From: an uncultured Prevotellaceae bacterium
GTDB taxonomy: Bacteria; Bacteroidota; Bacteroidia; Bacteroidales; Muribaculaceae
NCBI GenBank assembly: GCA_937916085.1
Contig: CALGGO010000060.1
Coordinates: 1,602-65,601 of the forward strand
Direction: 5' to 3'
DNA length: 64,000 bases
The notes below the pieces were generated by a model. It worked only from the letters and a program-made list of their open reading frames with translations, ran no database searches and was not told the DNA's origin. Both the position numbers and the translations under genes were made by a program. Positions 368 to 57,240 of this stretch are shown piece by piece. Each line of letters begins with the position of its first letter. Positions within the stretch are counted from its first letter, which is position 1.

Positions 368-671
368 TGCTTATTTAATGCATAATTCACAATTGATTAA
401 GTGCAAAGATTATTTTCATTTAAATTCTTTTAATTCCTTTAGTCATTGGCAGAATTGCGCAACACCAAATCACGAAAAATCAACTATAAGTGATTTTTTA
501 CACTGATTTATTAACAATTTAAATCTGCCAATGGGCAACTCTAATCAATTATCAACCTCAAATCCGTTATAGGATTGAGGCTGTTTTATATAAATTTACC
601 TAAAACACAAAACCTTTTCCTAATTTGTTATATTTTTCTTCAAAAAGCACCTAAACTTAGATTATTTTCAT

Positions 672-679
672 TATCTTTG
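672..679 (+). promoter_or_regulatory. Bacteroidota -7 box candidate (TATCTTTG) for the XRE gene
   Basis: Exact match to the TAnnTTTG consensus, 34 nt upstream of the ATG at 713. Confidence 0.4.
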
Positions 680-690
680 TATCCACATTA

Positions 691-709
691 ATTATATAAA
701 ATTATATAA
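691..709 (+). promoter_or_regulatory. Tandem ATTATATAA x2, candidate operator between the -7 box and the start codon
   Basis: attatataaa/attatataag direct duplication at 691-699 and 701-709, immediately upstream of the XRE gene. Confidence 0.3.
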
Positions 710-712
710 GAT

Positions 713-931
713 ATGACAAGAGACATGAATCGCCTCAAAGTGGTGCTTGCAGAAACAAAACGCACCAACAGATGGTTAGCAGAACAACTGGGCAAGGACG
801 AAGCAACAGTCTCCAAATGGTGTACAAACACAAGCCAGCCGAGCCTTGAAACATTGTTTCAAATAGCAGAATGCCTTGACGTTCATGTTCAAGAACTTAT
901 TAGCAAGGATAAGAAATATGATTCAGAATAG
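713..931 (+). CDS. XRE/Cro-C1 family helix-turn-helix regulator (R-M controller-like)
   Basis: 72 aa. RTNRWLAEQLGKDEATVSKWCTNTSQPSLETLFQIAECL is a typical HTH_3 pattern. Its 3' end overlaps the next gene. Confidence 0.8.
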   Translation: MTRDMNRLKVVLAETKRTNRWLAEQLGKDEATVSKWCTNTSQPSLETLFQIAECLDVHVQELISKDKKYDSE

Positions 932-3900
932 TTTCATAACAAACAAAGATAAACTACTGTCAGATATCATCAACGGCATTCTTCCAAAGAGTCAATCATT
1001 GGATGTCCTCGTTGGGTATTTCTTCTTCTCAGGCTATAAACTGATTTCTGAGAAGTTGATAGACAAGCACGTGCGCATTCTTGTTGGGCTTGACATTGAC
1101 ACGCGGATTACGAAATACATCCATGAGATTGATACTTTAGCCGATTACAACAAGTCTCGTAGTCAGCTCAAGGATGATTACTATAACCATTTCGTTAGGC
1201 TGTTCAATGACACCGATTTCCTTGATAGCCAACCCAAATTGGAATACTTCAAGTTATTTTATGACAAGATTAAGGCCGGCTCTTTGGAAATCAGAAGAAC
1301 AGATGAACCTTGTCACGCCAAGATGTATATATTTGAATATAAGGATGAGATCAACGAGGAAGGCGAAGACCCAGGTTCTGTTATTACAGGTTCCAGCAAT
1401 CTTTCTTATGAAGGTTTGGCGGGAAGAGTTGAAATCAATGCCCGTTTCAACGACAAAGGTTCCTATATAGATGCCAAAACTATTTTCGAAGAACTTTGGG
1501 AAAAGTCAATTGTCATTGCCGACAAAGATCATATTGATGATTTCGACACAAAGGTCATGGACCGTATATGGTATGAAAAGTTATATAGTCCTTACAAGAT
1601 GTACCTCCGTGTGCTCAAGGAGTACTTCGCCATTCCCACATCGGAAAATCTACTTACGCCATACGACATTACAGATGGTAAGTTCTCAAATCTAAAATAT
1701 CAAACGGATGCCGTGCAAATGGCCATTAATGCCATCAAGAATCATAATGGTGTGATAGTGGCCGATGTGGTAGGACTGGGCAAGAGTATCATTGCCTCTA
1801 CCGTTGCCCGCAATCTTAGATTAAGAACACTGGTGGTTTGTCCGCCTCATTTGGAAGAGCAATGGCGCAGTTATCGTGATGACTTTGGTTTTACTGCATC
1901 TATTTACACGACGGGAAAACTAGAGGATGCTTTGAATTACTACGAACGAATAGTAAAGGCCGACGAGCAGTATCTGATCGTTGTTGATGAGGCACACCGC
2001 TACCGAAACGAATACACAATTGACTACACAATTCTGCATCAACTTTGTTCTGGCAATAAGGTGATACTTTTGACAGCAACCCCATTCAATAATAAACCAG
2101 ACGATATCTATGCGATGCTGAAACTGTTCCAGATTCCAACCAAATCTACCTTGAAGACTGTTGATAATCTGGGTGCAAAGTTCAAAGACTTGATAGCCAC
2201 GTATAAACAACTTCAAAAGGATCAGCGCAATGGAAAAGTAACGGATGCCGAAGTAACCAAAGAAGCAGGAAGGATAGCTAACGAGATACGTTCTATCATC
2301 AGCCCACTTGTGATTCGACGCTCTCGTATTGATTTGAAGGAAATACCAGAGTACGCCGAAGACTTAAAACAGCAGAATATCCAGTTAGTCATCCCCAACG
2401 ATCCCATTGAGTTGGATTACGACCTAAGGAGTCTAAAAGACCTGTATCTTGAAACGCTTGACCGCATTAGCGAGGATGATGATAAGAAAAAGAACAACGG
2501 GAAATACCGATTCAAAGCTGCCCGATATTCTCCAGTCTTATATCTGAGAGAAGAATTAAAGCAGGAACTATCAGATTTGTTGGAAGAAAAGACTGGCGTA
2601 GAACTGAATCTGTTGTTTGGACGACAGGCCAATGTCGCAAAGTTTATGCGTCGCTTGTTGGTGCGTCGTTTTGAGAGTTCTGAATATGCTTTTCGTATGT
2701 CACTTGAATATATGATAGGCAGTTCTCGTAAAATCCTGAAATGGATAAAAGAAAAGGGAAAGATGCCTGTCTATAAGAAAGGAAATCTTCCTGACGTTGA
2801 TGACTTTTATAAGACAAACGATGATGGTAACAACCTCATTACAGAAACCTACGAAAAGTATGAGAAACGTGGATTCTTTGAAATAGACATGAAGTATATC
2901 AAGGAATCCTTTGTAGAAGACATCAAGGCGGACATGGCTCTGCTTTTAGAGATACAAAAGAAATGGTTCGGAGAGGACGGAACTATCATGAGCGACCCCA
3001 AGTTGGAATCGTTCAAGGGCATTTTAGACAAGCAAATTGCCAAGGAACCTCAGCGCAAAATCATTGTGTTTACAGAGTTTGCCGATACTGCCGACTATCT
3101 TGGCAAGGCATTACAGGCATACGGGCTTCCAGTATTCAAATACACCTCTGCCGATGCTTCCCAAACCAACAAAAACACCATCAACGCTAACTTCAATGCG
3201 GGAGAGAAAAAGGAGTATCAGCGGGATGACTATAAAATACTCGTTGCTACCGATGCAATCTCTGAAGGCTACAACCTGCATCGTGCAGGAACGGTTATCA
3301 ATTATGACATTCCATACAACCCCACTCGTATCATCCAGCGAATAGGGCGTATCAACCGCATTAACAAGAAAGTCTTCGACCAGTTGTATATCTACAACTA
3401 CTTCCCAACGGATGTAGGCGAATCAGAAACGCGCACCAAGGAAATCTCTACCTTGAAGATGGCTATGATTCATGCCATCATGGGAGAAGACACAAAAGTG
3501 CTAACCAAAGATGAGGAAATACAATCTTATTTTTTAGAACAGTATCGCAAAGAAATGGCAAAGAGCGAGGAAATATCCTGGGACGTTAAGTACCAGAAAC
3601 TGCTAAACGCAGCCAAGGGTACTGAGATTTATGAAGAAGCATTGCAGTTGCCTCATCGTGCTCGTACAGGCCGTTCTGGTGAAAAGCCTAGAAGCGGTGC
3701 CCTCATGTTTGGCAAGAAGGGCAACGATTTTGTCTTTAAGATAGGAAACGAAGAAGGCTTGGTCATTCAATTAACCGCAGAAGAAGCCATTGGCCTATTT
3801 GAGGCAGAAACAAGCGAACAGCCCACAGCACTTTCCGAATCTTTCGAGTCTGCTTATCAGTTAACCAAATCACATCTGTTCAGTAGTGATGTGAAGGACA

Positions 3901-4175
3901 AGAACGAGAAAGCACGAATAGAAGCCATGCAGAAGGTGAAAGTGATGCTGAATCGCAAGGTGCTACCAACTGACTATCTGAAAGACTTGATAAAGGTCAT
4001 TCAGAGCGATGGCCTTTCTGGCTATGAAATTCGTTATATAAACAAACTGAAACCTGCCGACTACAATAAGTTGCCCGACCAAATTGATGAATATTATATC
4101 AATCGCATCATAGAAACATGCAATCATGTGGATGATGGCGAGGAATTAATCATTTTAGCAGAGGAATTAAAATGA
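918..4175 (+). CDS. PLD-family nuclease domain fused to an SNF2/SF2 helicase
   Basis: N-terminal single HKD motif: CHAKMYIF...GSSNLS (about 1311-1400). Helicase motifs: ADVVGLGKS (I), DEAHRYRN (II), LLTATPFNN (III), ATDAISEGYNLH (V), QRIGRINR (VI). Start taken at ATG 918; the ORF is open from 876. Confidence 0.85.
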   Translation: MIQNSFITNKDKLLSDIINGILPKSQSLDVLVGYFFFSGYKLISEKLIDKHVRILVGLDIDTRITKYIHEIDTLADYNKSRSQLKDDYYNHFVRLFNDTDFLDSQPKLEYFKLFYDKIKAGSLEIRRTDEPCHAKMYIFEYKDEINEEGEDPGSVITGSSNLSYEGLAGRVEINARFNDKGSYIDAKTIFEELWEKSIVIADKDHIDDFDTKVMDRIWYEKLYSPYKMYLRVLKEYFAIPTSENLLTPYDITDGKFSNLKYQTDAVQMAINAIKNHNGVIVADVVGLGKSIIASTVARNLRLRTLVVCPPHLEEQWRSYRDDFGFTASIYTTGKLEDALNYYERIVKADEQYLIVVDEAHRYRNEYTIDYTILHQLCSGNKVILLTATPFNNKPDDIYAMLKLFQIPTKSTLKTVDNLGAKFKDLIATYKQLQKDQRNGKVTDAEVTKEAGRIANEIRSIISPLVIRRSRIDLKEIPEYAEDLKQQNIQLVIPNDPIELDYDLRSLKDLYLETLDRISEDDDKKKNNGKYRFKAARYSPVLYLREELKQELSDLLEEKTGVELNLLFGRQANVAKFMRRLLVRRFESSEYAFRMSLEYMIGSSRKILKWIKEKGKMPVYKKGNLPDVDDFYKTNDDGNNLITETYEKYEKRGFFEIDMKYIKESFVEDIKADMALLLEIQKKWFGEDGTIMSDPKLESFKGILDKQIAKEPQRKIIVFTEFADTADYLGKALQAYGLPVFKYTSADASQTNKNTINANFNAGEKKEYQRDDYKILVATDAISEGYNLHRAGTVINYDIPYNPTRIIQRIGRINRINKKVFDQLYIYNYFPTDVGESETRTKEISTLKMAMIHAIMGEDTKVLTKDEEIQSYFLEQYRKEMAKSEEISWDVKYQKLLNAAKGTEIYEEALQLPHRARTGRSGEKPRSGALMFGKKGNDFVFKIGNEEGLVIQLTAEEAIGLFEAETSEQPTALSESFESAYQLTKSHLFSSDVKDKNEKARIEAMQKVKVMLNRKVLPTDYLKDLIKVIQSDGLSGYEIRYINKLKPADYNKLPDQIDEYYINRIIETCNHVDDGEELIILAEELK

Positions 4176-6130
4176 AAACTGCACAAGAACTTTTCGACCA
4201 ATTGAATTCTATTGACGAGAATGTCAGAATCGATGCAAAAAAAGCATCTGAGATAGATAAGAGCATTATGGAAACCGTATGCGCTTTTGCCAATGAGCCA
4301 GGCTTGGGCGGTGGATATCTGTTATTAGGCGCAATCAGAACGGGTTTTAAGGATGGGCTTCCAGTATATGTGCCCGAGAACATTGAGAATCCTGATAAAA
4401 TACAGAATGATTTTACTACCCAGTGTAGTTCTATGTTCAATGTACGCATCCGTCCACAGATAGAAACTGAGGTCGTAGAGGGGAAAACGGTACTTGTTGT
4501 TAAGATTGACGAAGCTCCTGAAGCCCAAAAACCTATATATATAGTTAACCGTGGACTACCTCAAGGGGCTTTTCGCAGAATAGGTCCTTCTGACCAAAAA
4601 TGTACCGAAGACGATATGAGGGTTTTCTATTCTTCTGCCGAGAGTTTCGACAGCACCATTGTAAAGGGTGCTACACTTGATGATATAGACGACAATGCAG
4701 TAGAATACTATAGGAGACTACGTTCCAAGGTAAACCCCAATGCAGAGGAATTGTCATACGATGACAAAGATCTTCTCATGGCATTAAGGGCATGCGAAAA
4801 GGAAAAAGATGGCAACTATGTCTTGACTTATACGGGACTCGTCGTATTTGGAAAATCTATGTCACTACGCCGTTTGTTGCCAGCATTAAGAGTAGATTAC
4901 ATTCGTGTATCTGGCAACAGATGGATAGAAGACCCCGATAAACGTTTCGAGACTACCATTGATATGCGTGGGCCACTTATTCTATTAGTCAACCGTGCTC
5001 TCAATGCAATCATAGACGACCTGCCAAAAGGCTTTGAACTGAAAAAAGGCAATATTCAATCCAATACACCATTTGACTTACCTAATGATGCACTTCGTGA
5101 GGCTTTGGTCAATGCTTTCATCCATTGTTCATTCCGACTTAATCAGCCTATACAGATTATTAGATACTCTAATCGCTTGGAAATAATCAATCCTGGTTTT
5201 TCTTTAAAATCCCCCGAGACTTTAGGCGAGCCAGGATCAGTGCAACGTAATCCATTTATCAGTACCATATTCCATGATACGAACTTAGCAGAAACTAAAG
5301 GTTCGGGCATAAGGTCTATGCGAGGACACATGAAGAAAGCGGGTATGATGCCTCCTACTTTTGAATCAAATCGCTCTGCCAATCAGTTCACTGCGCGATT
5401 ACTATTGCATCACTTCTTGGATAAAGAAACCATTCAGTGGCTTTCATACTATACAGACTATTCATTAAACAACGAGCAAAGGCTAGCCCTGGTCTTTGTC
5501 CGCGAAGTCGGGGCAATAGACAATATAACCTATCGACAGCTAAATAGTGATATTAATAATCAAAAAGCTTCTTTTGATTTGCACGACATGTGTGCCAAAG
5601 GATTATTGGAACAGAAAGGGCAAAGCAGAAGTACATACTACATTGCAGGTACAAACTTTGTTAATAGTAGAGCTGACGGAGAAAATAGTAGAGCTGACGG
5701 AGAAAATAGTAGAGCTAACGAAGAAAATAGTAGAGCTAACGAAGAAAATAGTAGAGCTATTGGAGAAAATAGTAGAGCTGACGGAGAAATGAGTAGAGGT
5801 AACTATCCTCTTAATAGTAGAGGTGACGCCCTTAATAGTAGAGCTAACAAACCCCTTAATAGTAGAGCTAAACAATTTCCCGTAGAATTACAAAAGAAGA
5901 TTTCTAAAATTGGGAGACGCTCTAAACCTGAAGCCATGAAAGAACTTATAATAGAACTTTGTAGTTTGTGTCCGCTAAGTTTACAGGAGTTAGCAAGTAT
6001 ATTAAAGAGAAAACCTTCATCATTAAGGTATCTATATATTAATTCATTAATAGGCAACCACCAGCTTTTCTATACTATTCCAGAGATGCTAAACCATCCT
6101 AATCAAAAATATACAACTGTCAAAAAATAA
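4172..6130 (+). CDS. AlbA_2 (Schlafen-like) plus HATPase_c_4 'RecG-like' putative DNA-binding protein with C-terminal wHTH-like region
   Basis: N-terminal ETVCAFANEPGLGGGYLLLGA (AlbA_2 pattern). Central REALVNAFIHCSFRLNQPIQIIRYSNRLEIINPG (HATPase_c_4 pattern). The start overlaps the helicase stop (ATGA). Confidence 0.7.
   Translation: MKTAQELFDQLNSIDENVRIDAKKASEIDKSIMETVCAFANEPGLGGGYLLLGAIRTGFKDGLPVYVPENIENPDKIQNDFTTQCSSMFNVRIRPQIETEVVEGKTVLVVKIDEAPEAQKPIYIVNRGLPQGAFRRIGPSDQKCTEDDMRVFYSSAESFDSTIVKGATLDDIDDNAVEYYRRLRSKVNPNAEELSYDDKDLLMALRACEKEKDGNYVLTYTGLVVFGKSMSLRRLLPALRVDYIRVSGNRWIEDPDKRFETTIDMRGPLILLVNRALNAIIDDLPKGFELKKGNIQSNTPFDLPNDALREALVNAFIHCSFRLNQPIQIIRYSNRLEIINPGFSLKSPETLGEPGSVQRNPFISTIFHDTNLAETKGSGIRSMRGHMKKAGMMPPTFESNRSANQFTARLLLHHFLDKETIQWLSYYTDYSLNNEQRLALVFVREVGAIDNITYRQLNSDINNQKASFDLHDMCAKGLLEQKGQSRSTYYIAGTNFVNSRADGENSRADGENSRANEENSRANEENSRAIGENSRADGEMSRGNYPLNSRGDALNSRANKPLNSRAKQFPVELQKKISKIGRRSKPEAMKELIIELCSLCPLSLQELASILKRKPSSLRYLYINSLIGNHQLFYTIPEMLNHPNQKYTTVKK
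5663..5875 (+). repeat. In-frame 21-bp tandem repeat (6 near-perfect plus about 4 degenerate units)
   Basis: aatagtagagctgacggagaa repeats from 5663 in exact 21-nt steps. It encodes NSRADGE/NSRANEE/NSRAIGE heptads, then LNSRGDA/LNSRANKP/LNSRAKQ. Confidence 0.95.
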
Positions 6131-6142
6131 GCATTAGCCAAT

Positions 6143-9100
6143 ATGGAGTTTAACAGAGCATATAACCGTGACGAATTTCTCTCATTCCTGAGAGTTAACT
6201 TCCTCCCAGAGGATTTCCGACAGGAAATAAGCAGTGTAGAGAATCCTGTCCAGTTCCAATACACCCAGCAAGTGACACGTCTCGGAGAATGTGAGTCGCT
6301 GGGGTTGGTGGTCTATGAAGTGCACCATAGTTCAAAACACGATGCACGTGTAGGTCTCACCAAAGAAGCTTTCCGTCTGTTGGCTGACGAATTCTGCGAA
6401 CGCGCTTTGGTGTTCTTTGTGCCAAAGGATGATTACAGCAACTATCGTTTCTCGCTGATTGAGATCACGCTCGACCAATCAGAAGAATCCTCACGCATCA
6501 GCCGCCGATACTCCAATCCTCACCGCTATTCTTATTACCTTGGCAATGGCATCGCTTACTATACCCCAAACAAATACCTGAATGAGAATGGCCGAGTAGT
6601 TAACATTGATGACTTGCGCAGCCGTTTCTCGGTGGAGGTACTTACCAAGGCCTTCTATCAGGAACTCAGCGACTGGTATGCCTGGGCAATTATGGTTGTA
6701 CAATTCCCTAATGACTTGACGATGCCGGAGGATAAACAGAAGTATAACTCTGAGGCGATGATTCGCCTGATAACCCGTCTTATTTTCGTCTGGTTCCTCA
6801 AACAGCGTCACTTGGTGCCCGACGAATTCTTTGATGAGAATTTTATCGCTTCTGAATTAATAGAAGGCTTTTCCCCTCATGCAATAGAGAACCTTTTCGG
6901 AAAGTCTTATGAGAGCAAGTACTATAAAGGTGTACTGCAAAACCTCTTCTTCGCCATGCTCAACAGTCCCATCACGCCAGAAGGTAAGGACACCATTTCT
7001 GAACGTCGTTTCCGCAATGGGCGTGGCGACTATGACAACAACAAATTGATGCGTCATGAGGATTTATTTATCAATCCCGATAAGTTTGTGGAACTGGCTA
7101 ACAAGTATGTACCATTTCTAAATGGTGGTTTGTTCGACTGCTTGGACGACAAGGACAAAGGCATTTATATTGATGCTTTCACAGACCGCAAGGCCATCAG
7201 CGACCAGTTGGTGATACCCGACTTTCTATTCTTTGGTGACGAGGTAGGCAAAAACATCGACCTCTCCGATTGGTATGGCGACAAGAAGAAAAAGAAGGTT
7301 AGTGCACGGGGTATTATTGACATTCTGAAGCGTTATAACTTCACCGTTGAAGAAAACACGCCTTTCGACCAAGAAGTATCACTCGACCCAGAGCTATTGG
7401 GAAAAGTGTTTGAGAACCTTTTGGCTGCCTACAACCCAGAGACGCAGACGACTGCCCGCAAGCAGACAGGATCGTTCTATACCCCTCGTGAGATTGTGCA
7501 GTACATGGTGGACGAAAGCCTGATAGCCCATCTAAAGCGAACAGTAGGCGAAGCGTTAGAACCAGAATATCGGAAGTTGGTGCAATATACTGATGAGGAA
7601 CTGAATCTAACCGATGATCAGAAACGCCAGATAATGCAGTCGCTCTATGAATGTAAGGTGCTCGACCCCGCCTGTGGCTCAGGTGCATTCCCAATGGGTA
7701 TGCTCCAACAGATGGTGCATATCCTAGGACAACTTGACCCCAACAACGAGCAATGGAAGAATATGATGCTCAACAATGCCATCAGCGAGACATCTGACGC
7801 CTACCACAACGCAACAGATGAAGAACGTTCGGAAATCGTTGCCGACATAGAGCGCAGTTTCAACGAGAGTATAAATCGCCCCGACTATGCCCGTAAACTC
7901 TACCTGATAGAGAACTGCATCTATGGCGTGGATATCCAGCCCATTGCTATCCAAATCAGCAAACTCCGTTTCTTTATTTCCTTGGTGGTTGACCAGAAGA
8001 CAAACAACAATCCTGTTGACAACTTCGGCATACGTCCTTTGCCAAACCTCGAGGCAAAGTTTGTAGCGGCAAACACCTTGGTTGGATTAGAGAAACGCGA
8101 AACAAACCTCTTTGACTCCGAAACTATCCGCGAAAAAGAAAAGGAAATGAAAGAGGCGAAGCATCGCATATTTGGAGCAAAAACGGTAAAAACAAAACGT
8201 AAATATAAGGAGAAGGTTGAAAGTCTTCGTAATGAAATTACACTAATGTTGAAAGAAAGTGGAGCGATTGGTAATATTGAAGCCCGCCAACTTTCAGAAT
8301 GGGATATGTTTGACCAGAACGCTTCTTCACCATTCTTTGATAGCGAATGGATGTTTAGTATTAAAGATGGATTTGATATTATTGTAGGTAATCCTCCATA
8401 CCATCAATTGTCTAAAGACAAATCTGCCCCATTGGCATATAGAGCCTACTTAAAAAGGAGATACAACACTTCTGGAGGAAGACAAAATACGTTTATTTAT
8501 TTCACTCATCTTGGTATTGAACTTACGGCTAATAATGGAGTTCTTTCTTATATTATTCCCAATACGATACTGACGCAAGAATACTATAAGGATACTCGTA
8601 AACTATTACTTAAAGAGACATCTCTTCTTAAAGTTGTGTTTTACGATAAAATGCCATTCGAAAATGCTGTAGTGGAGAATGTTACCTTTATTGTTTCTAA
8701 ACACAAACAACCCGATTACGAAATATCGTATTATATTAGTGATGTACACTCTGTTGATTATAATTGTACTAAGCAAAAGAGTGAATTTATGACATCACCT
8801 ATATTTGCTTTTAGCTTCAAGTCAAATAATTTAAATAGCAAGGTCGCTCTTGACTCCATAAAGCTTAAAGATCTATGCAATATAAATCAAGCTATTGCAT
8901 TAAAGGGTGACAAGTCACTATCTGTAAAACGAGATAATCCATCAGGAAAGTACTATAGATTATTAGATGGAAGAAATATAAATAAATATTCAGTAACTTG
9001 GACTGGGGAGTATCTTGATTATTGTTTAGAAAGAATTCATTCATGCAAAACAAAAACGATTTTCGAAGTTCCTGAAAAACTATTATTTAGAAGAGTATCT

Positions 9101-9523
9101 GCAAATTTGATATTCACCTATGACAACAACCAATATTATGCTTTAAACACTATTGTTGTTGTTACGTTAAAAGGAGAGAAATATATTTCACTAAAATATC
9201 TTCTCGCCCTTCTTAACTCAAAACTTTTGAATTTCTACTATGTAACAGAACACAAATCAACAAAGAAAGTTTTTTCTGAGATACAAGCACGTAGCGTTGG
9301 AGAACTTCCTATAAAACATGTCTCCCAGAATAAACAACAGGGATTCATTTCTTTGGTAGACAAAATCCTAATATCCAAAGAAGAGAATCCACAGGCAGAC
9401 ACAAGCACATTAGAAAACGAGATTGACAAGAAAGTCTATCACCTCTACGGCCTGACCTACGATGAAGTCCTCATCGTTGATCCAGAGACTCCGATAACAA
9501 GAGAAGAATACGAAAAATGTTAA
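6143..9523 (+). CDS. Eco57I-like (gamma-class) N6-adenine DNA methyltransferase with long N- and C-terminal extensions
   Basis: 1126 aa. AdoMet motif VLDPACGSGAFPMG (about 7661-7700) and catalytic GNPPY (NPPY at 8390-8401). The C-terminal region resembles a type IIG/TaqI-like specificity domain. Confidence 0.85.
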   Translation: MEFNRAYNRDEFLSFLRVNFLPEDFRQEISSVENPVQFQYTQQVTRLGECESLGLVVYEVHHSSKHDARVGLTKEAFRLLADEFCERALVFFVPKDDYSNYRFSLIEITLDQSEESSRISRRYSNPHRYSYYLGNGIAYYTPNKYLNENGRVVNIDDLRSRFSVEVLTKAFYQELSDWYAWAIMVVQFPNDLTMPEDKQKYNSEAMIRLITRLIFVWFLKQRHLVPDEFFDENFIASELIEGFSPHAIENLFGKSYESKYYKGVLQNLFFAMLNSPITPEGKDTISERRFRNGRGDYDNNKLMRHEDLFINPDKFVELANKYVPFLNGGLFDCLDDKDKGIYIDAFTDRKAISDQLVIPDFLFFGDEVGKNIDLSDWYGDKKKKKVSARGIIDILKRYNFTVEENTPFDQEVSLDPELLGKVFENLLAAYNPETQTTARKQTGSFYTPREIVQYMVDESLIAHLKRTVGEALEPEYRKLVQYTDEELNLTDDQKRQIMQSLYECKVLDPACGSGAFPMGMLQQMVHILGQLDPNNEQWKNMMLNNAISETSDAYHNATDEERSEIVADIERSFNESINRPDYARKLYLIENCIYGVDIQPIAIQISKLRFFISLVVDQKTNNNPVDNFGIRPLPNLEAKFVAANTLVGLEKRETNLFDSETIREKEKEMKEAKHRIFGAKTVKTKRKYKEKVESLRNEITLMLKESGAIGNIEARQLSEWDMFDQNASSPFFDSEWMFSIKDGFDIIVGNPPYHQLSKDKSAPLAYRAYLKRRYNTSGGRQNTFIYFTHLGIELTANNGVLSYIIPNTILTQEYYKDTRKLLLKETSLLKVVFYDKMPFENAVVENVTFIVSKHKQPDYEISYYISDVHSVDYNCTKQKSEFMTSPIFAFSFKSNNLNSKVALDSIKLKDLCNINQAIALKGDKSLSVKRDNPSGKYYRLLDGRNINKYSVTWTGEYLDYCLERIHSCKTKTIFEVPEKLLFRRVSANLIFTYDNNQYYALNTIVVVTLKGEKYISLKYLLALLNSKLLNFYYVTEHKSTKKVFSEIQARSVGELPIKHVSQNKQQGFISLVDKILISKEENPQADTSTLENEIDKKVYHLYGLTYDEVLIVDPETPITREEYEKC

Positions 9524-9544
9524 AAACCATTTATTCACTTATTT

Positions 9545-10453
9545 ATGTTAGATAGAGAAATTATTATCCGTCGATTAGCAATAATTAAATACCTCCATAA
9601 TATTGGCGTGCAACAGTCAATGCAAGTAGAAACTGTTGCTGGTTTTTCTGTTCTAGCTTTCCATGATTGTGCTGAAATGTTTCTACTGCTTGTTGCTGAA
9701 AATAAAGGTGACAATTGTGAGAAGTGGTCTTTTATGGAATTTTGGAACAAATATCCAGAACTGTCATTAAAAGAATCCATGAGAAATCTTAAGGACAGAC
9801 GTGTAAGTGTAAAACATAAAGGTCAATTCCCTTCAAAAACCGATATTGAAATTAGTCGAGTAACTATTGCAGATTTCTTGGAGCAGAACACTCCGATTCA
9901 ATTTGGTATAGAATATAAAGACATCTCAGTTTCTGAACTTATTTCATACAATAACGTTAAAGAATATGTAAGCAAAGCAGAAGTCTTTTATAATGAAAAC
10001 AAATTATATGAATGTCTGTCTAACTGTAAGATAGCTTTTCTTGAACTTATGTACACATATGAATCAAGTAAGCATAATCGATTTGGAATTGATAGTTCTA
10101 TAAGTATTGGAGATAAAATTGGCAATGATTATCAGCTACTTGTAGGAAATGATGACAGACAGGGCGCAAGATGGTTCAAGGAGGTTACTGAAACTACAAA
10201 CAAGATGCGTGATTTATTGAAGATAGTTGCCCTTGGTATAGATTATAAAAGATATACATATTTTGAAACGATAACTCCCGAAGTTAATGTTTGGTGGGAT
10301 GAAAGAGGTAAAGAATATGAACCATATCCTCAGGAGTATTATAAAAATAGCAATCACATACGAGGAGAGGATTGTAGATCTTGTATTAGTTTTGTAATAG
10401 ATAGCGCTCTTAAGTTACAAGAATTGGATTATGATATTAATATTATTAAGTAG
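9545..10453 (+). CDS. Hypothetical protein, no recognised family (contains one R-x4-H motif)
   Basis: 302-aa AT-rich ORF on the same strand, 21 nt after the methyltransferase. RRVSVKH near residue 85. No other motif recognised. Confidence 0.55.
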   Translation: MLDREIIIRRLAIIKYLHNIGVQQSMQVETVAGFSVLAFHDCAEMFLLLVAENKGDNCEKWSFMEFWNKYPELSLKESMRNLKDRRVSVKHKGQFPSKTDIEISRVTIADFLEQNTPIQFGIEYKDISVSELISYNNVKEYVSKAEVFYNENKLYECLSNCKIAFLELMYTYESSKHNRFGIDSSISIGDKIGNDYQLLVGNDDRQGARWFKEVTETTNKMRDLLKIVALGIDYKRYTYFETITPEVNVWWDERGKEYEPYPQEYYKNSNHIRGEDCRSCISFVIDSALKLQELDYDINIIK

Positions 10454-10563
10454 ATATTATGTCACGACTCAGCGATTTATACAAGGCAATGGAAACGTTG
10501 CGGAAAGAAGGTCTCTCCTTGAATGAAGATTTGGAGCGGCATATAAGCTAACTGGAATAAGAA

Positions 10564-11265
10564 ATGTTTTATCTCGACGACAAGGAATTTGGCAGGGTGT
10601 TCATCTCGGTGCGCAGCAATATGCGCAACGTCACCATGCGGTGGAAGGGTGGCAGCCTGTATATGAATGTGCCTCCTGGAGTATCAAAGGAGCATTTGGA
10701 ACAGGTGCTCGACGAGATGCGGCCTAAACTGCGTCAGGGGCAGACTAAAGACGAACTGTCCTACCACATCGGGCAGGAGATAGAGTGCTACGGTTTCAAA
10801 ATAGTGATTGGCGAGCAGGCAAGGTATCACGACAAGATAATTTTCAGCAAGAGCGATAATGTGGTGACAGCCAGTGTGCCACATGGCATTGACCTCACCA
10901 CCCGCAGCAGCAAGCAGTGGATATCAAGAGCTTTGAAAACAGTGGCTCACAACGAAGCCGCAAGGCTGCTGTCGCTGGCACAAAGTGTAACAGCGCGGCT
11001 GGGCGTGGCTCCCGAACGGTTTGAGATAGGGCGCGGGCTGCGCAAACTAGGACACTGCACTCCCAAGCGCGTCATCCAGCTCTCGGCAAACCTTGTGTTC
11101 CTGCCCAAAGAGCTTATTGAATACATTATCTGCCACGAACTCGCCCACCTTACCCACATGAACCACTCCCCGCAATTCCACGCACTTGTTAATAAATACG
11201 TCAACGGCCAAGAAAAAGCCCTCGAACGTAAGTTGAGAGCTTTTCAATGGCCTGTGATAAGGTAG
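10564..11265 (+). CDS. YgjP/DUF45-like (M48-related) zinc metallohydrolase
   Basis: 233 aa. CHELAHLTHMNHSPQFHALV is the HExxH...NHS..F signature of DUF45. GC-rich native composition. Confidence 0.75.
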   Translation: MFYLDDKEFGRVFISVRSNMRNVTMRWKGGSLYMNVPPGVSKEHLEQVLDEMRPKLRQGQTKDELSYHIGQEIECYGFKIVIGEQARYHDKIIFSKSDNVVTASVPHGIDLTTRSSKQWISRALKTVAHNEAARLLSLAQSVTARLGVAPERFEIGRGLRKLGHCTPKRVIQLSANLVFLPKELIEYIICHELAHLTHMNHSPQFHALVNKYVNGQEKALERKLRAFQWPVIR

Positions 11266-14225: not shown

Positions 14226-14498
14226 AGTTCATAGTTAAGAGTTAAGAGTTCACAGTTGTCAGTTAAGAGTTCACAGTTGTCAGTTAAGAGTTCACAGTTG
14301 TCAGTTCAGAGTTCACAGTTGTCAGTTCAGAGTTCACAGTTAAGAGTTCAGAGTTCATAGTTAAGAGTTAAGAGTTCACAGTTGTCAGTTCAGAGTTCAC
14401 AGTTAAGAGTTCAGAGTTCACAGTTAAGAGTTCAGAGTTCATAGTTCATAGTTAATAGTTAAGAGTTCAGAGTTCACAGTTGTCAGTTCAGAGTTCAA
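14226..14498. repeat. 39 consecutive heptamers AGTTNNN (NNN = CAC, GTC, AAG, CAG, CAT, AAT, CAA) with no phase slip
   Basis: Parsed by eye unit by unit. Fills the deoC-polA intergenic spacer, beginning 5 nt from the polA start codon. Confidence 0.95.
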
Positions 14499-14507: not shown

Positions 14508-14539
14508 AAACTATGAACTCTGAACTATAAACTGTGAAC
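14508..14539. repeat. Four heptamers of the same family in inverted orientation (AACT-type); can pair with the end of the array; candidate deoC terminator stem
   Basis: aactatgaactctgaactataaactgtgaact is the reverse complement of agttcac/agtttat/agttcag/agttcat words. It lies 3 nt downstream of the deoC stop on the minus strand. Confidence 0.7.
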
Positions 14540-14541
14540 TT

Positions 14542-15497: not shown

Positions 15498-15833
15498 CTA
15501 TTTCTGCTTTATTAATTTGTCATTCTCAATGTGGCGAGAGGCGTCGCGGGCGGTTTTCTTGGCGAAGTTGCGTTGCAGAGCCTCGTCGAGGTTGATGCCC
15601 GTCTGGTTGGCGAGGCACATCACCACCCACAGCACGTCGGCGAGCTCGTCGCCCAGGTCACGGTCCTCGTCGCTGGGTTTGCACGACTGCTCGCCATAAC
15701 GCCTGGCGATGATGCGCGCCACCTCGCCCACTTCCTCGCTGAGTATTGCCATGTTGGTCAACTCATTGAAGTAGCGCACCCCGTAGGTCTTAATCCACTG
15801 GTCCACGCGCTCCTGCGCCTCGTTAATAGTCAT
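15498..15833 (-). CDS. MazG-like nucleotide pyrophosphohydrolase (small single-domain form)
   Basis: 111 aa. EEVGEVARIIARRYGEQS...LGDELADVLWVVMCLANQTGINLDEAL is the EExxE...DxxD all-alpha NTP-PPase pattern. Confidence 0.8.
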   Translation of the reverse strand: MTINEAQERVDQWIKTYGVRYFNELTNMAILSEEVGEVARIIARRYGEQSCKPSDEDRDLGDELADVLWVVMCLANQTGINLDEALQRNFAKKTARDASRHIENDKLIKQK

Positions 15834-15867
15834 CAGTTGTCAGTTATCAGTTGTCGGTTTCTTGATG

Positions 15868-16499: not shown

Positions 16500-16826
16500 T
16501 CGTGGTTCTCGCCGTAGGCGACCATCTCGCATATTTGACCTCTCGCAAAGTTGCACCTGTCGGCGAAAGCAAAGCCGCGCAAGCGCGGTGTTTTTGTCAC
16601 ACGGAAAAAATCCTGCGTGAGCAGGCTTTGTGACGAGCTCCGCTCGCAGCTTTAGATAAAATGCTCACGCTCGCAAGGCTTTGTGCAAGCACAAACTTTG
16701 TCTCGCTTAATCGCATTTTTGTGAGATTATAATGCTGGTATACTGGGACTAATTTTAATTCCAATTTTCAATTAATTTTAAGCGCGTAGCGCGCCCCCTC
16801 GAGTGTATAACGCCACTGTGCCGGGT
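16500..16826. repeat. Mosaic mini-hairpin array, copy A
   Basis: A string of short stem-loops (cgcc-gta-ggcg, ccgcgc-aa-gcgcgg, cctgc-gtga-gcagg, ttgtgc-aa-gcacaa, gcgc-gta-gcgc) joined by linkers shared with copies B and C (gataaaatgctcacgctcg, tctcgcttaatcgcattttt). Confidence 0.8.
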
Positions 16827-16829
16827 GTG

Positions 16830-17282
16830 TCACTCACGCAGGCGTGAGTCGATGATGATGGTGACGGGGCCGTCGTTGATGAGCGACACCTGCATGTCGG
16901 CGCCGAAGACGCCACGCTGCACGGGCTTGCCCATTAATTGCTCCACCTCCTGGCAGTAGAGCTCATAGAGCGGCACGGCGAGGTCGTGGCCTGCGGCATG
17001 GATGTAGCTGGGGCGGTTGCCCTTGCGGGTGCTAGCGTTAAGGGTGAACTGGCTCACTGCCAGCACCTCGCCGCCGGCATCTACGATGTTGCGGTTCATC
17101 ACTCCAGCGTCGTCGTCAAAGACGCGCAGGTTCACCGTCTTCTGCGCCAGCCACCGCACGTCGTCCTCGGTGTCGCCCTCGCGCACCCCCACCAGCACCA
17201 TGTAGCCGCCGCCTATCGCACTATGCACCTCGCCGCCAATGGCTACCGATGCCTCTCTCACTCGTTGTATAACTATTCTCAT
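16830..17282 (-). CDS. dtd: D-aminoacyl-tRNA deacylase
   Basis: 150 aa. MRIVIQRV...SQFTL...GNRPSY...DGPVT is the canonical Dtd pattern. Confidence 0.9.
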   Translation of the reverse strand: MRIVIQRVREASVAIGGEVHSAIGGGYMVLVGVREGDTEDDVRWLAQKTVNLRVFDDDAGVMNRNIVDAGGEVLAVSQFTLNASTRKGNRPSYIHAAGHDLAVPLYELYCQEVEQLMGKPVQRGVFGADMQVSLINDGPVTIIIDSRLRE

Positions 17283-17339
17283 ATCAGTTGTCAGTTATCA
17301 GATGTCAGATGCAAAGTTACTATTTTTTTAGACATACTG

Positions 17340-17708
17340 ACGTGAGAAAAGAAGATTTCTGCGCCCTGCGGGCGAAATTAGAGCACTTCGTGCTAAAAAA
17401 TGCGATTAAGCGAGAGAAGACAAGAACTTGTTCTTTGTATTCCGAGCGTGAGCATTTTATCCAAATTGATGTTGCGCCCAAGGGCGCTAAAATTATTTTA
17501 AAATAAAATTTTAGTGCGAAGCACCACAATAATGTTAGAGCCAAAGGCTCTTTAATTTCCATGTGCTGTGGCACATGGCGACCGTTCCTGCGTAAGCAGG
17601 CTTTGCTTTCGCCTACAGGTGCAACTTTGCGAGAGAACAAATGTGGATTTTGATTTAATTTTAAGCGTGTAGCGCACCCCTTCGAGTGTCAAAAGCCACT
17701 GTTGGGAG
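17340..17708. repeat. Mosaic mini-hairpin array, copy B (contains the 140-nt core 17361-17500)
   Basis: The reverse complement of 17361-17500 is identical base for base to 23559-23698. 17575-17625 is inverted relative to 16530-16580. 17656-17708 repeats 16772-16825 in direct orientation. Confidence 0.9.
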
Positions 17709-17995: not shown

Positions 17996-20900
17996 ATGTT
18001 CAAAAAAATTTATCTAAAATTACTGATGGGCTTGCTGCTCACGGCACTCTCCGTGCCGCTAGCAAAGGCTGCTGAAGAAGTATTTGACTTTACTTCTAAC
18101 CATTATGGTTATAATACTGGAGACGAATTAACCACTATAATTGGTAGTGATATTTCTATAAGCTTCTCAGGTGATGGTAGTTCTACTATAAGTTCAAATT
18201 ACATCAATTTTGTTAAGAACTCAACTATGACTTTTAGCTTCTCGAACAATATCACTAGCATTCTTTTTGAGGGTGTCAGACTTCAAGGAAATGGAAATAC
18301 TACTACATCAAACATTTTTATGTATGTTATTAATGGAGGAGGTTATACAACAGGGTCTTGGACAAGTTCGACAGGCAAAGCAACGTGGACTGGTTCTTCC
18401 AATTCTCCTTATTTTAAAAACTATGACAGTGATGGTGCTTATCCAATTCGTATTTCCAAAATCACTGTTACATATGATGGTAGTGGCAACAAATATGAGG
18501 CTACCCCATCACCTGCATCAATTGCTTTTGGTGCAGTAAATAAGGGAGAGGAATCAACTCAAACCATCGTATTGAAGAATACTGGTACAGGCGACGCTGA
18601 CTTTACCCCCGTTCCATCAATTACCGATGATGCATCAGGTGTTTTCTCAATAGAAAGCGGTTATGAGACTGGAGTGCTTGAAGTTGGAAACACTCGAAAC
18701 TACAATATTGTTTTCAATCCAAATGCAGAAGGCAGTTTTACTGGAAACTTAGTCTTCACTATGACAGGTGAGGATGGTAATGAAAGGACATTAACCGTTC
18801 CTCTCTCTGGTACCGGCAACAAGGCTCTCTATGATGCCTCTGTTACTCCTGATGAGGGTCAGCTTGACTTTGGAAAGATTATCGTTGGCAGGACTGCCAC
18901 TAAGAAGGTGAAGATTACCAGCCTTGGCACACAGCCCATTGCTCCAACAGTATCAATAACTGGTACTGGCTTTGACGTGAACTATACCACCACTACTCTC
19001 AACCTTAATGAGAGTAACGAGATTACTGTAACATTCACCCCTACTGCCGCCAGCACCATTTACACTGGCCGCTTGACAATCACCGCCTACGACGGCAAGA
19101 CCTTTAACTTCACCCTTAAGGGCGAGGGCAAGGACGCAAGCGAAGCCACAGACTTCGACAACGGCACCTACAAGTGGCCTATCAACGCCGATGAGGCTGA
19201 CCAAGTGACATCTTACTATTCAGAGATTGCCACCGACCCCGACCAGATGATAGCCTTGATGCGTGCCGTGTATATGGACACATCGCTTCCTGGCAGCATT
19301 ACGCGCGGTTACAGCAGTGCTGGTGTAGGTGATGGCACGGTAGATTACCCTGCAATAGGTACAATGACAGGCTCATACGCCAATCCGTCTTATAATGATG
19401 CTTATGGTTGGAATATCCCGTCAAAGAGCATCATTACAGCACAATCATTCTCTAACAAGAATCTGAATTATTTTAACCGCACAGATTACACTCCAGAAAC
19501 AGAAGGTCTTACTCTTTTGTTGGTTGAGGTGAAAGACGGTGTAGATGCTTCTAAGACCAATGGCATAGTTTCACAAAGTTCTACTGACTATGCTAGTTTG
19601 CGTAACATTTTTGAAAAGACATTCAGTAGTGTTCGCATTATAAGCTCTTCTAAGGAGCTTGATGATGACACAAACCCAGGCACCCTGTTTAAGATTGACT
19701 GCGACCGCATGAACCGCTTCTTCCTTCTGGGCAAGGGACGTCTGCGCCAGTATGGAAGCTATATTGGTACTGGAGATAACATTTTCTATGGTTCTTACTG
19801 GCAAAATGACATATCATCATTTACAGAGATGGAGAATGGACCCTTCTACCAGATGTTTGAGCAATTCAGCCCTGTATCACTCACTGGTAGTTCAGCATAC
19901 GCTACTGATATCTACCAATCCCTTGTAAACGGTGACACCTATGGTGTAGAGCACGACTGTGAAGCAATTCCTTGGGCAAACGACGGTTACGGCATTATTG
20001 GCCACGAGTTCAACCTCTATGGACGTGACTCTTACGCCTCCGACTGCCAGGACATTCGCGACCTGTTGCTTTTTATTCCCAAATACCGCATGAAATGGTG
20101 GTATAGTAGCGGTAGTGGCCGTGACGGCAAGTCAACTGAGGAGCCATCTGTCGATATGTACAAGAACTACAACAAGGACTATGAGCCAACAATGGGACTG
20201 TTTGTAATCAATCAGAATGAGATTACAGGCAAGAAGGTTGAGAATGCAAGGAAATATAACCTGCATTTCAGCTGGACTTCCAACTTGGCTAAGTTCTTGC
20301 CTGGCGCCAATGGCAAATACACCCTCTATCAAGTAATTACCACCACCAATGCCGATGGCACTGTTACCAAGAATTATGTTGAAGTGGATAATGCCGTGGT
20401 TGATGCCAACACGCTTAAGTTTGACTGGAATAACGTGCCAATGGAAGCTAACGGCCGTGAGATGACTTTCGTTGTTCGCGGACAAGATGCCGATGGTTTC
20501 TTGACGCTACAATACTCCAACGAGCGCAGCTTCTATATCCCTGGTTATGAGAATAAAGAGCAGTTGAAGCTTGCGATGAATGTTGACAGCTACTTCAGCC
20601 GCTTTGACCCACAGCTGGTTCAGAACAACTACTCCAACTCCCTCACCATCGACAATGCTGGCACATCGTTGCTTAGCACTTATCTGTCGGACGGCACTGA
20701 CGGCGACGCTACGGTGTTCCACATTTGGCGCGTTCCCAATGGCAACTACGACAATAAAGTTGAGGTAGCTACCGCAACTGTCACCAGCAAGACTACAAGT
20801 GATGGCACTATGAATCTTGTGGTGGTTCCCGCTACTCAAAGTGAGTTTACCTATGGCTATCATGCTAATCCTGATGTTATAAACACCACATTCAGCATTA

Positions 20901-22702: not shown

Positions 22703-22783
22703 CGGACAGGTCGGACAGGTCGGACGGGTCGGACAGGTCGGACGAGTCGGACGGGTCGGACAAGTCGGACGGGTCGGACAAGG
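22703..22783. repeat. 9-nt tandem array CGGACRRGT x9
   Basis: cggacaggt/cggacaggt/cggacgggt/cggacaggt/cggacgagt/cggacgggt/cggacaagt/cggacgggt/cggacaagg in exact 9-nt steps. Confidence 0.95.
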
Positions 22784-22792
22784 CGTTACTGA

Positions 22793-22827
22793 AACTAAGA
22801 ACTGAGAACTATTAACTATAAACTATT
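22793..22827. repeat. Heptamer array AACTNNN x5 (complement orientation of the AGTT family)
   Basis: aactaag/aactgag/aactatt/aactata/aactatt. Confidence 0.9.
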
Positions 22828-23458: not shown

Positions 23459-23481
23459 TGCAGAATGCTGAATGCAGAATC

Positions 23482-23754: not shown

Positions 23755-23796
23755 AACTAAGAACTGATAACTCTAAACTTATAACTTATAACTATT
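23755..23796. repeat. Heptamer array AACTNNN x6 ending exactly at the SPFH start codon
   Basis: aactaag/aactgat/aactcta/aacttat/aacttat/aactatt, then ATG at 23797. Confidence 0.9.
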
Positions 23797-24759: not shown

Positions 24760-24786
24760 TACAATGCAGAATGCGGAATGCTGAAA

Positions 24787-38476: not shown

Positions 38477-38611
38477 AATTAATTCATATTTTGTGGCAAA
38501 GATAGTGAAAAAGATTAATAAAACACAAATAATTAACGATATAAGTGTTGCAAAGTCAATGCTTTTTTCAAAAAACTAGCAACTACAAACTAATAACTAA
38601 AAACTATTTTG

Positions 38612-46879: not shown

Positions 46880-46914
46880 GTTTATCGGGGATCGGGGATC
46901 GTTGTTCGTTTATC
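46880..46914. repeat. Heptamer array NNNNATC x5 just upstream of a minus-strand start codon
   Basis: gtttatc/ggggatc/ggggatc/gttgttc/gtttatc. Confidence 0.9.
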
Positions 46915-57231: not shown

Positions 57232-57240
57232 AATTATGTC

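Follow-up and report, generated by a model that had tools for sequence, protein, structure and literature searches.

A low-GC island in an uncultured Prevotellaceae bacterium encodes a predicted two-protein, ATP-dependent restriction-modification system

The stretch of DNA analysed here (the window) comprises 64,000 nucleotides of contig CALGGO010000060.1 (positions 1,602 to 65,601, assembly GCA_937916085.1) from an uncultured Prevotellaceae bacterium. Near its left end lies a low-GC island of five genes, two of which encode the candidate restriction-modification pair that is our subject: a PLD(HKD)-Swi2/Snf2 protein, called the helicase below, and a gamma-class N6-adenine methyltransferase. 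A small helix-turn-helix (HTH) gene precedes the pair, a Schlafen/AlbA_2 gene is lodged between its members, and an open reading frame (ORF) of 302 codons, ORF302, follows it. The genes and their principal parts are listed first.

713..931, plus strand: 72-amino-acid (aa) XRE/HTH_3 regulator, candidate controller (C) protein (HTH_3, 1.3e-9; HTH_26, 2.5e-8)
918..4175, plus strand: 1085-aa PLD(HKD)-Swi2/Snf2 nuclease-translocase, predicted restriction subunit (Pfam PLDc_2, SNF2-rel_dom, Helicase_C, ResIII); PLD at ~993-1499, SNF2 N-lobe at ~1692-2360, Helicase_C at ~3024-3365, family-specific C-terminal region at ~3573-4172
4172..6130, plus strand: 652-aa Schlafen/AlbA_2 + HATPase_c_4 protein (Pfam), putative passenger (auxiliary) gene
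5642..5875, plus strand: in-frame 21-nt tandem repeat inside the AlbA_2 gene, encoding NSRADGE-like heptads (9 copies; Tandem Repeats Finder period 21, score 212)
6143-9523, plus strand: 1126-aa gamma-class N6-adenine methyltransferase (Eco57I, 1.1e-32; TaqI_C, 1.9e-26; N6_Mtase)
6143..8400, plus strand: conserved N-terminal three quarters of the methyltransferase, a family-specific region (aa 1 to ~440) followed by the catalytic core
8401..9433, plus strand: swappable target-recognition (TaqI_C) cassette (TaqI_C, 1.9e-26; GC 0.319 vs 0.451 in the rest of the gene)
9434..9523, plus strand: conserved C-terminal methyltransferase tail, ...VYHLYGLTYDEVLIVDP...REEYE, common to relatives with different target-recognition domains (TRDs)
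9545..10453, plus strand: ORF302, member of a ~300-aa Bacteroidales family (233 homologues), putative mobile cargo in a variable slot after the methyltransferase

An initial annotation, made from the letters alone, had described an AT-richer block between nadK and the DUF45/polA genes carrying five co-directional plus-strand genes. Both observations stand: GC content is 0.31-0.47 across window positions 501-10500 vs 0.49-0.60 on both flanks, and Pfam recovers the domains that had been named. Composition within the island is itself a mosaic (helicase 0.416, AlbA_2 0.395, conserved methyltransferase part 0.451, TRD 0.319, ORF302 0.323), set in surroundings of 0.255 for the intergenic stretch 368-712, 0.521 for DUF45 and 0.564 for polA. 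All five genes abut or overlap, with overlaps of 14 nt between the HTH and helicase genes and 4 nt between the helicase and AlbA_2 genes, and with gaps of 12 nt from AlbA_2 to the methyltransferase and 21 nt from there to ORF302.

The helicase start had been placed at TTG 876 but is almost certainly ATG 918, which yields 1085 aa, in line with the 1084-1085 aa of homologues and of the public gene call. Read from there, the protein contains a single HxK (H133, K135) followed by GSSN, then GLGKS at 286, DEAH at 357 and QRIGRINR at 807. The HxK, GSSN, GLGKS, DEAH, TATP and QRxGRxxR motifs are invariant in 25/25 diverse helicases at 31-64% identity. The family is large, with 1030 clusters (50% identity) at E<=1e-30, many of which align end to end at 31-45% identity. 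DDM1, Fft3, RapA and a Rad54-like SNF2 protein are the nearest solved motors, and by these comparisons the motor is of the true Swi2/Snf2 double-stranded DNA translocase type. Since each chain holds one HxK...GSSN half-site, two chains would be needed per PLD active site, and we predict a composite site of the sort known from the PLD dimers Nuc, BfiI, SauUSI and MtsD. A Pfam scan found no recognisable sequence-reading or modification-reading domain in the protein. Curated defence models recognise it at a distance: the PADLOC 'HKD+Snf2' model matches, the best NCBIfam match is a DrmD model (2.8e-50), and the bit scores are 171.6 for DrmD model NF038317 (cutoff 610), 105.4 for DrmD model NF038318 (cutoff 950) and 131.5 for the PLD anti-phage model NF042964 (cutoff 1100), the last marking a distant relative only.

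The methyltransferase presents its motifs in the gamma-class order, GSFYTP at 443, DPACGSG at 508 and NPPY at 750, followed by TaqI_C. When a profile of 24 diverse methyltransferases was compared with the PDB, it matched CamA (8e-52), BseCI, BrxX/PglX (9ewz, 1e-24), TaqI and MmeI (5hr4, 1e-14), in each case over the catalytic half and TRD only. Nothing in the PDB, neither the nuclease domain of MmeI nor the N-terminal domain of BrxX, matches profile positions 1-360, and no Pfam, PADLOC or NCBIfam nuclease family matches over aa 1-390. R102, S104, R128 and several aromatics are the N-terminal residues that stay invariant across 44 homologues, in which neither a D...(D/E)XK motif, an acidic/lysine triad nor any other acidic triad is conserved. 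We considered VPKDDYSNYRFSLIEIT as a degenerate MmeI-type D-x10-E-x-K motif and rejected it, as distant homologues do not keep D96/D97 and E107; E59 is likewise unconserved among the 44. The earlier statement that this methyltransferase has no recognisable nuclease domain is thus upheld, by the absence both of a family match (Pfam, PDB) and of a conserved triad in these homologues. Structure prediction adds little: the model of aa 1-460, built from a 25-row alignment of close homologues only, has a mean predicted local distance difference test score (pLDDT) of 48.6 and is usable only for aa 1-125, and with this poor model Foldseek returned nothing from the PDB below E=0.001, at template modelling (TM) scores of ~0.1. 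Among models of known systems, the protein matches DrmMI at 7e-23 and the PglX model NF033452 at 70.8 bits (cutoff 500).

Specificity within this family appears to change by exchange of the TRD. Related loci carry L-numbers as labels here (L002 is S. bryantii; L090 is P. distasonis NZ_OY725763.1). DNA homology of the window to L084, L085, L086, L087 and L002 ends each time (5/5) at nt 8400, which falls within NPPY at residue 752, and picks up again at 9329 or 9434. The methyltransferases of these close relatives are 83-92% identical over aa 1-752, 20-29% identical over aa 753-1085 and 63-98% identical over the last 41 residues. The TRD is, on this pattern, a discrete exchangeable cassette, and its exchange alone between relatives points to diversifying specificity, a hallmark of restriction systems.

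Two related loci carry short TRD-like ORFs just downstream of the methyltransferase, one inverted on the minus strand (L021 7167-7532) and one direct (L023 15958-16665); these fragments may be silent cassettes for TRD switching, which has been reported for related loci (PMC9881135). Similarly, a 305-aa inverted gene that follows the methyltransferase gene Pin17FIII in P. intermedia 17F (PMC5608340) suggests cassette switching there. A search of the window for flanking direct repeats and for an invertible or silent TRD cassette gave only short repeats at chance level.

Helicase and methyltransferase genes travel together far beyond the Bacteroidales. Scanning one genome per species, we collected 80 helicase-anchored loci from >15 phyla: Bacteroidota, Planctomycetota, Elusimicrobiota, Ignavibacteriota, Cloacimonadota, Patescibacteria, Bacillota, Chloroflexota, Spirochaetota, Deinococcota, Aquificota, Pseudomonadota and others. 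A same-strand methyltransferase homologue that includes the family-specific N-terminal region is present in 58/80, and among loci with both flanks >=5 kb it is present in 25/26 (19 downstream of the helicase, 6 upstream). Where the methyltransferase follows the helicase, the junction measures -23 to +23 nt in 38 of 49 loci and most commonly -4, a 4-bp overlap; these gaps are approximate, as starts were taken from the longest ORF. Look-ups anchored on the methyltransferase also show the helicase as neighbour, and the two genes appear to be translationally coupled.

No third gene keeps them company to this extent. Helicase, AlbA_2 protein and methyltransferase had been viewed as a trio, a conserved unit that does not survive the comparison, with AlbA_2-like genes in only 8/80 loci and in varying positions. 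No neighbour cluster occurs in more than 8/80 loci, no PADLOC family matches >2 of the 50 largest neighbouring ORFs, and none of BrxC, PglZ, DrmA, DrmB and DUF499 recurs among those 50. By this comparative evidence the functional unit is the helicase-methyltransferase pair, plus the HTH gene in Bacteroidales. The loci sit in defence islands, since single unrelated defence genes (GajB, type I REase, Cas10, DRT, mad3, PsyrT) lie nearby.

Some individual loci show further features. In L006 (8604-9857) and L032 (1331-2329) the gene immediately before the helicase encodes an S-adenosylmethionine (SAM) synthetase, and a third such gene is found in L037 (4942-6153, minus strand), ~4 kb upstream of the helicase and on the opposite strand; such genes could supply methyl donor locally or counter phage SAM-degrading enzymes. 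Within L100 (2186-6936), part of a Bacteroidales genome of 2.2 Mb, ~15 small ORFs take the place of the helicase and of the methyltransferase's first half, and the downstream ORF304, Trypsin_2 and RhuM genes are intact; this fragmentation reflects either decay of the restriction genes or assembly frameshift errors.

Upstream of the pair, the HTH gene and the sequence before it have the appearance of a control region, with two candidate elements.

673..680, plus strand: candidate Bacteroidetes-type -7 promoter element TATCTTTG, upstream of the HTH gene, read from the sequence
690..709, plus strand: candidate operator of two tandem AATTATATAA units, each with palindrome TTATATAA, 4 nt before the HTH start codon

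The octamer TATCTTTG is kept upstream of the HTH gene in the window, L084, L087 and L002. The Bacteroides -7 consensus is TAnnTTTG, and by that consensus we take the octamer to be a candidate -7 box. The two AATTATATAA units match each other at 100%, with the TTATATAA palindromes at 692-709; TTATATAANNTTATATAA is found a single time in the 64 kb, against a chance expectation of 0, and the candidate operator is identical in L084. A small HTH gene occupies the same position in L002, L077, L084, L087, L090, L099 and L105 and has no counterpart outside Bacteroidales among the 80 loci. It is of XRE type and overlaps the start of the putative restriction gene, an arrangement that recurs in the Bacteroidales relatives; restriction controller proteins are classically encoded in this way, by a small HTH gene that overlaps the start of the nuclease gene. 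The 72-aa protein could therefore be a controller that times expression of the toxic nuclease subunit.

We propose that the island encodes a minimal two-protein, ATP-dependent restriction-modification system with Type III/MANTIS-like logic, and consider this reading probable. The methyltransferase would serve as the specificity and modification subunit: its TRD would read a short, probably asymmetric site, and host DNA would be methylated there. At unmodified sites, the methyltransferase would recruit or license a dimer of the PLD-Swi2/Snf2 protein, a step suggested because the helicase has no recognisable sequence-reading domain of its own. The dimer would translocate on double-stranded DNA, driven by ATP, and would cleave through a single composite PLD site formed by the two protomers. 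The AlbA_2/Schlafen-HisKinase and ORF302 genes would be separate passengers in the operon. We infer helicase-methyltransferase contact, recruitment, dimeric cleavage, restriction of unmethylated DNA and the controller role of the HTH protein from sequence. The initial annotation had likewise assigned modification and specificity to the methyltransferase and ATP-driven cleavage to the PLD-SNF2 protein. Comparative genomics supports this split of roles, because the pair is co-conserved, the motifs are invariant, the methyltransferase is without a nuclease motif and the TRD alone is swapped; the trio is the part of that proposal to be given up.

Published systems offer partial precedents for each half of the scheme. 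In MANTIS, a PLD-superfamily 2 (SF2) effector depends on a BREX-like methyltransferase for targeting: MtsC, which methylates only with the help of MtsA and MtsB, determines the specificity of both activities, and MtsD forms a PLD-SF2 dimer. Cleavage by the PLD-helicase has so far not been reconstituted in vitro. In P. intermedia 17F, an SNF2/RAD54 helicase gene precedes a 'Type IIG' gene of 1117 aa, and the latter alone in E. coli produces N6-methyladenine (m6A) at GGYGAB (PMC5608340). That gene, Pin17FIII, probably belongs to the same family as the window methyltransferase.

Comparison with known systems defines the pair more closely. MANTIS (Gao_RL, BREX-related type 2; MtsABCD) shares an N-terminal HKD/PLD domain fused to an SF2/Swi2-Snf2 ATPase, an adjoining N6-adenine methyltransferase and, sometimes, a small repressor gene. 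By contrast, our pair is without the DUF499 AAA+ protein (MtsA) and DUF3780/3870 (MtsB), both in the window and recurrently in the 80 loci, and the window methyltransferase has its own family-specific N-terminal region. Type III systems (EcoP15I-like Mod/Res) share the two-gene logic that we infer here, with recognition in the methyltransferase and a non-specific SF2 ATPase-nuclease dependent on it; this division of roles is suggested because the helicase is without a DNA-reading domain and TRD swaps are confined to the methyltransferase. Mod methylates alone, and asymmetric sites would be expected, as in the scheme above. The parts, however, are different: Type III Mod is beta-class with an internal TRD and Res has a C-terminal PD-(D/E)XK nuclease, whereas the window methyltransferase is gamma-class with a C-terminal TRD and the window nuclease is an N-terminal PLD on a Swi2/Snf2 motor. 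The nearest working analogue of the pair would be a loader-free MANTIS, or a Type III system whose 'Res' is a PLD-Snf2 protein and whose 'Mod' is type IIG/PglX-like.

Other systems share components rather than plan. Class 1 DISARM (DrmA, DrmB, DrmC, DrmD, DrmMI) also combines an SNF2 helicase, a PLD nuclease (a DrmC-like function) and an N6-adenine methyltransferase, but the island is without the DrmA helicase and DrmB (DUF1998), its PLD is fused to SNF2 and its scores fall far below the cutoffs. Type ISP enzymes (LlaGI, LlaBIII) unite nuclease, SF2 translocase, gamma-class methyltransferase and TRD in ATP-driven restriction, yet do so in a single chain with an Mrr nuclease, whereas here there are two ORFs with an unrelated gene between them and a PLD nuclease. 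The earlier label 'Type ISP/DISARM-like' thus describes the logic fairly, and every test of membership in either family came out negative. Type IIG enzymes (MmeI, Eco57I) and BREX PglX/BrxX are built on the same Eco57I/TaqI_C chassis, in which TRD exchange alters specificity. Unlike the former, the window methyltransferase shows no MmeI-type nuclease domain or motif and is paired with a dedicated nuclease-motor; unlike BREX, there is no PglZ or BrxC/PglY in the window or recurrent in the 80 loci, and the NF033452 score is the low one given above. SauUSI (type IV) resembles the helicase in joining a PLD nuclease to an SF2 ATPase with a single HKD per chain, which implies a dimeric active site, but it has its own modified-cytosine reader and attacks methylated DNA; no such reader was seen here. 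Finally, CglI/NgoAVII also couples a PLD nuclease to an SF2 ATPase, but in CglI the PLD and helicase are separate, the PLD subunit reads DNA and the methyltransferase is of C5 type, none of which we see here.

Several observations weigh against a self-contained restriction-modification pair. The methyltransferase was not seen in 22/80 helicase loci, most of them clipped by contig ends, and L033, L045, L049, L061 and L064 have none in 7-10 kb downstream, with little sequence available upstream. The candidate operator diverges between lineages, being absent from L087, L002 and L077, so that its role is tentative. There is no AAA+ loader here, whereas the MANTIS and BREX methyltransferases need one. 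The best PADLOC matches of the methyltransferase are type IIG models (REase_MTase_IIG, 6e-60), and the moderately confident part of its model, aa 1-125, has an alpha-beta3-alpha-beta order compatible with a restriction-endonuclease-like fold, so that the methyltransferase may conceivably harbour a non-canonical nuclease.

The last two points favour an alternative in which the methyltransferase is an autonomous type IIG enzyme with a divergent N-terminal nuclease and the PLD-SNF2 protein is an independent defence gene, either SauUSI-like and modification-dependent or a stand-alone helicase-nuclease. REBASE-style annotation does label related Prevotella genes Type IIG, the modelled alpha/beta segment has the element order of an endonuclease, and PLD-helicase fusions can work alone, as SauUSI does. 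We nevertheless judge this alternative improbable. The absence of a conserved acidic triad and of any Pfam or PDB nuclease match speaks against a hidden nuclease, and co-occurrence in 25/26 fully flanked loci, with 4-bp overlaps and across >15 phyla, is far tighter than a defence-island neighbourhood would produce. Moreover, no modification-reading domain was detected in the PLD-SNF2 protein, and a modification-dependent nuclease encoded in one operon with an active methyltransferase would attack its own host.

A second alternative takes the pair as an incomplete or trans-complemented fragment of a BREX, DISARM, ARMADA or MANTIS-type system, with an AAA+ loader, YprA helicase or PglZ encoded elsewhere, or as a device for phage exclusion without cutting. 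The module of Swi2/Snf2 protein and PglX-like methyltransferase is indeed common to DISARM class 1, ARMADA, BREX type 3 and BR systems, MtsC cannot methylate without MtsA and MtsB, and the best family matches of the helicase are DrmD models. Against this, no such partner is present in the island or recurrent in the 80 loci, the scores lie far below curated cutoffs (DrmD 171.6 vs 610; PglX 70.8 vs 500), and the invariant fused PLD site argues for cleavage. In addition, the probable family member Pin17FIII needed no partner to methylate DNA in E. coli. We give this explanation only a small chance.

The third alternative retains the trio, with the AlbA_2/Schlafen protein an integral subunit in this lineage that acts as sensor, regulator or effector. 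The order helicase-AlbA_2-methyltransferase, with its 4-nt overlap and 12-nt gap, is found in >=7 independent Prevotella-lineage contigs with different TRDs, and AlbA_2-like genes recur in 8/80 distant loci. The insert is, however, stable between helicase and methyltransferase in the Prevotella sub-lineage only. Close relatives are without the gene (S. bryantii L002, whose helicase is 93% identical, and L099), P. distasonis (L090) has a distant homologue upstream of the helicase, and in the 80 loci AlbA_2-like homologues stand upstream of, between or downstream of the pair. The same slot houses DUF1016, AbiE or Bro-N, and genes found between or beside the pair include DUF1016/YhcG, AbiEi/AbiEii, Bro-N, ORF6N, DUF4268 and AAA_14-DUF4143. 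The distribution indicates that the AlbA_2 gene is one of several interchangeable passengers and not a core part, and an integral third subunit seems a slim prospect.

The architecture of the AlbA_2 protein fits an auxiliary role. SLFN_AlbA_2 (4.5e-14, 53.4 bits, cutoff 25.3) and HATPase_c_4 (1e-16, 61.1 bits, cutoff 26) both pass their Pfam cutoffs, which gives the pSlfn-HisKinase domain composition. Schlafen plus HisKinase is the commonest pSlfn composition in an anti-phage tRNase family (PMC13056530), and Schlafen-HisKinase(-wHTH) genes, with the same Schlafen + HATPase_c_4 architecture as the window protein, are embedded as auxiliary effectors in >=1017 BREX or BREX-related (BR) loci in a 2026 survey (PMC12839542). 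The role of this gene, formerly left unexplained, can accordingly be restated as that of a published auxiliary effector/tRNase family. E16 and D21 are spaced like E15/D20, the catalytic pair of RorSlfn5, a comparison of spacing only. Near-identical homologues measure 623, 630, 632, 638, 639, 645, 652 and 659 aa, differences that are largely multiples of 7, so the copy number of the heptads encoded at 5642..5875 varies between strains.

Least likely of all, with a very slight chance, is a non-defence locus combining a phase-variable epigenetic methyltransferase with a DNA-repair or remodelling helicase, for although the Eco57I-type Cj0031 changes gene expression by phase variation and Swi2/Snf2 proteins such as RapA have housekeeping roles, such a reading fits poorly with an invariant PLD nuclease site fused to the motor, TRD cassettes exchanged between strains, a low-GC island of patchy distribution across phyla, and surroundings of defence genes with toxin-antitoxin and Abi passengers.

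Returning to the proposed two-protein system, the gene at its downstream end also behaves as cargo. ORF302 had been called an orphan; it has 233 homologues of ~300 aa, and no match in Pfam, PADLOC or NCBIfam families. It is 91% identical to a gene of L086 and 63% identical to the P. distasonis gene in the same position, and among the 80 loci it is, like the HTH gene, confined to Bacteroidales relatives. Some of its homologues follow the same methyltransferase family, others stand alone in integrative elements, and one lies on a mobilisable element behind an Eco57I-type enzyme of another kind (970 aa), together with a Trypsin_2 partner. What occupies the slot after the methyltransferase varies independently of the TRD: ORF302, 303 or 304 is found in the window, L085-L087, L099 and P. 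distasonis; L084 and S. bryantii share a 482/499-aa gene (99% identity between the two); L101 has a 377-aa gene and L105 one of 357 aa. Judged by these contexts, ORF302 is a mobile passenger and is not specific to the restriction pair.

An AlphaFold2 (AF2) model of ORF302 is all-alpha (pLDDT 90.6) and has no significant fold match. Within the family, R86 and K90 are invariant and H91 occurs in >=90% of sequences, giving Rx4H. This motif, together with HEPN proteins as the sole compact fold matches (at a non-significant E=3-6), makes a HEPN RNase at most a weak candidate, one to which Pfam and PDB profile searches lend no support. We discarded the idea of a TRD-like fragment comparable to the 305-aa gene after Pin17FIII, since ORF302 has no similarity to the TRD. 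Elsewhere, an ORF302-family gene is followed within 3-8 nt by a ~283-aa Trypsin_2 serine-protease gene (L097 9001-10768, L098 667-2434, L099 9001-10769); one of these three contexts is without a PLD-SNF2 system, which suggests a separate two-gene module. The window has no Trypsin_2 protease gene. In P. distasonis, L090 runs HTH, AlbA_2-like, SNF2, methylase and ORF304, then a TIR-domain protein (16654-17571) and a large AAA-domain protein (18329-21037); the record is a 63-kb circle typed as a non-mobilisable plasmid, and the TIR and AAA genes are further cargo of defence type.

A nuclease gene lodged within a restriction operon has a known parallel. PrrC, the anticodon nuclease in the EcoprrI type I locus, is released upon phage anti-restriction attack, and the likeness here would be that of a latent RNase gene inside a restriction operon. 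By extension, the pair might be a self-sufficient, unnamed class of ATP-dependent restriction-modification system, a minimal form of the DISARM/ARMADA/BREX type 3/MANTIS module, guarded in Prevotella by the embedded Schlafen tRNase and perhaps by a HEPN-like ORF302, both kept latent by the restriction complex and released, as PrrC is in EcoprrI, when phage anti-restriction proteins attack. We regard this larger scheme as speculative and, taken whole, rather unlikely.

The island is bounded by housekeeping genes, and its right edge can be placed closely.

29-367: nadK, left flank of the island
10459..10565, plus strand: 5' remnant of the 213-aa gene found after ORF303 in relatives (blastn)
10564-11265: YgjP-like/DUF45 gene, right flank, followed by polA

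Homology (blastn) of the window with L086/L087/L085 continues to 10565, equivalent to L086 9918-10024 inside the 213-aa gene, and this ~107-nt remnant marks, as we read it, where the island ends on the right. An allele without the insertion was not seen: the exact DUF45 protein occurs only on the window's own contig, and L084 carries the island at the same nadK/DUF45 site. Between the window and L084, the left flank and the island to nt 8400 are 95.9% identical and the right-flank DUF45 gene (compared over 10458-11263) only 82.8%, a faint sign either of recombination across the island or of its left part having swept recently. To judge from a single weak partial match among 50,697 phage records, phages do not carry the system. 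A tandem-repeat scan agrees with the earlier remark that heptamer word arrays mark native sites and are absent from 672-10453. Period-7 arrays occupy many native intergenic sites (for example 14226-14497, 15833-15859, 17284-17311, 46884-46994 and 54293-54390), with more at 14509-14540, 22788-22827, 23457-23480, 23762-23793, 24763-24785, 38571-38606, 48335-48406 and 57239-57318; one such array reads AGTTCAC/AGTTAAG/AGTTCAG, a 21-nt super-unit x13. Far outside the island, at window 22703-22780, lies a 9-nt tandem repeat, CGGACAGGT, in 8.7 copies (27-nt super-unit).

The helicase-methyltransferase pair has been noted in passing in two papers. One tabulates loci with programmed inversions and includes a type II methyltransferase coding sequence next to a PLD + SNF coding sequence (PMC9881135); the other, the P. 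intermedia study, mentions the upstream helicase (PMC5608340). No paper naming or testing the pair was found in the literature searched, and the pair, although widespread, is uncharacterised within that literature. Annotation of its members as type IIG enzymes and 'SNF2-related protein' hides the system from censuses of defence systems.

More broadly, helicase-methyltransferase systems pose the question of how the methyltransferase hands its target to the motor-nuclease. Two proteins that do without an AAA+ loader or YprA partner would provide a simpler model for this hand-over, and the TRD boundary at NPPY suggests a route for re-engineering specificity. The pair is common in Prevotella and other gut Bacteroidales, organisms in which barriers of this kind limit genetic tools.

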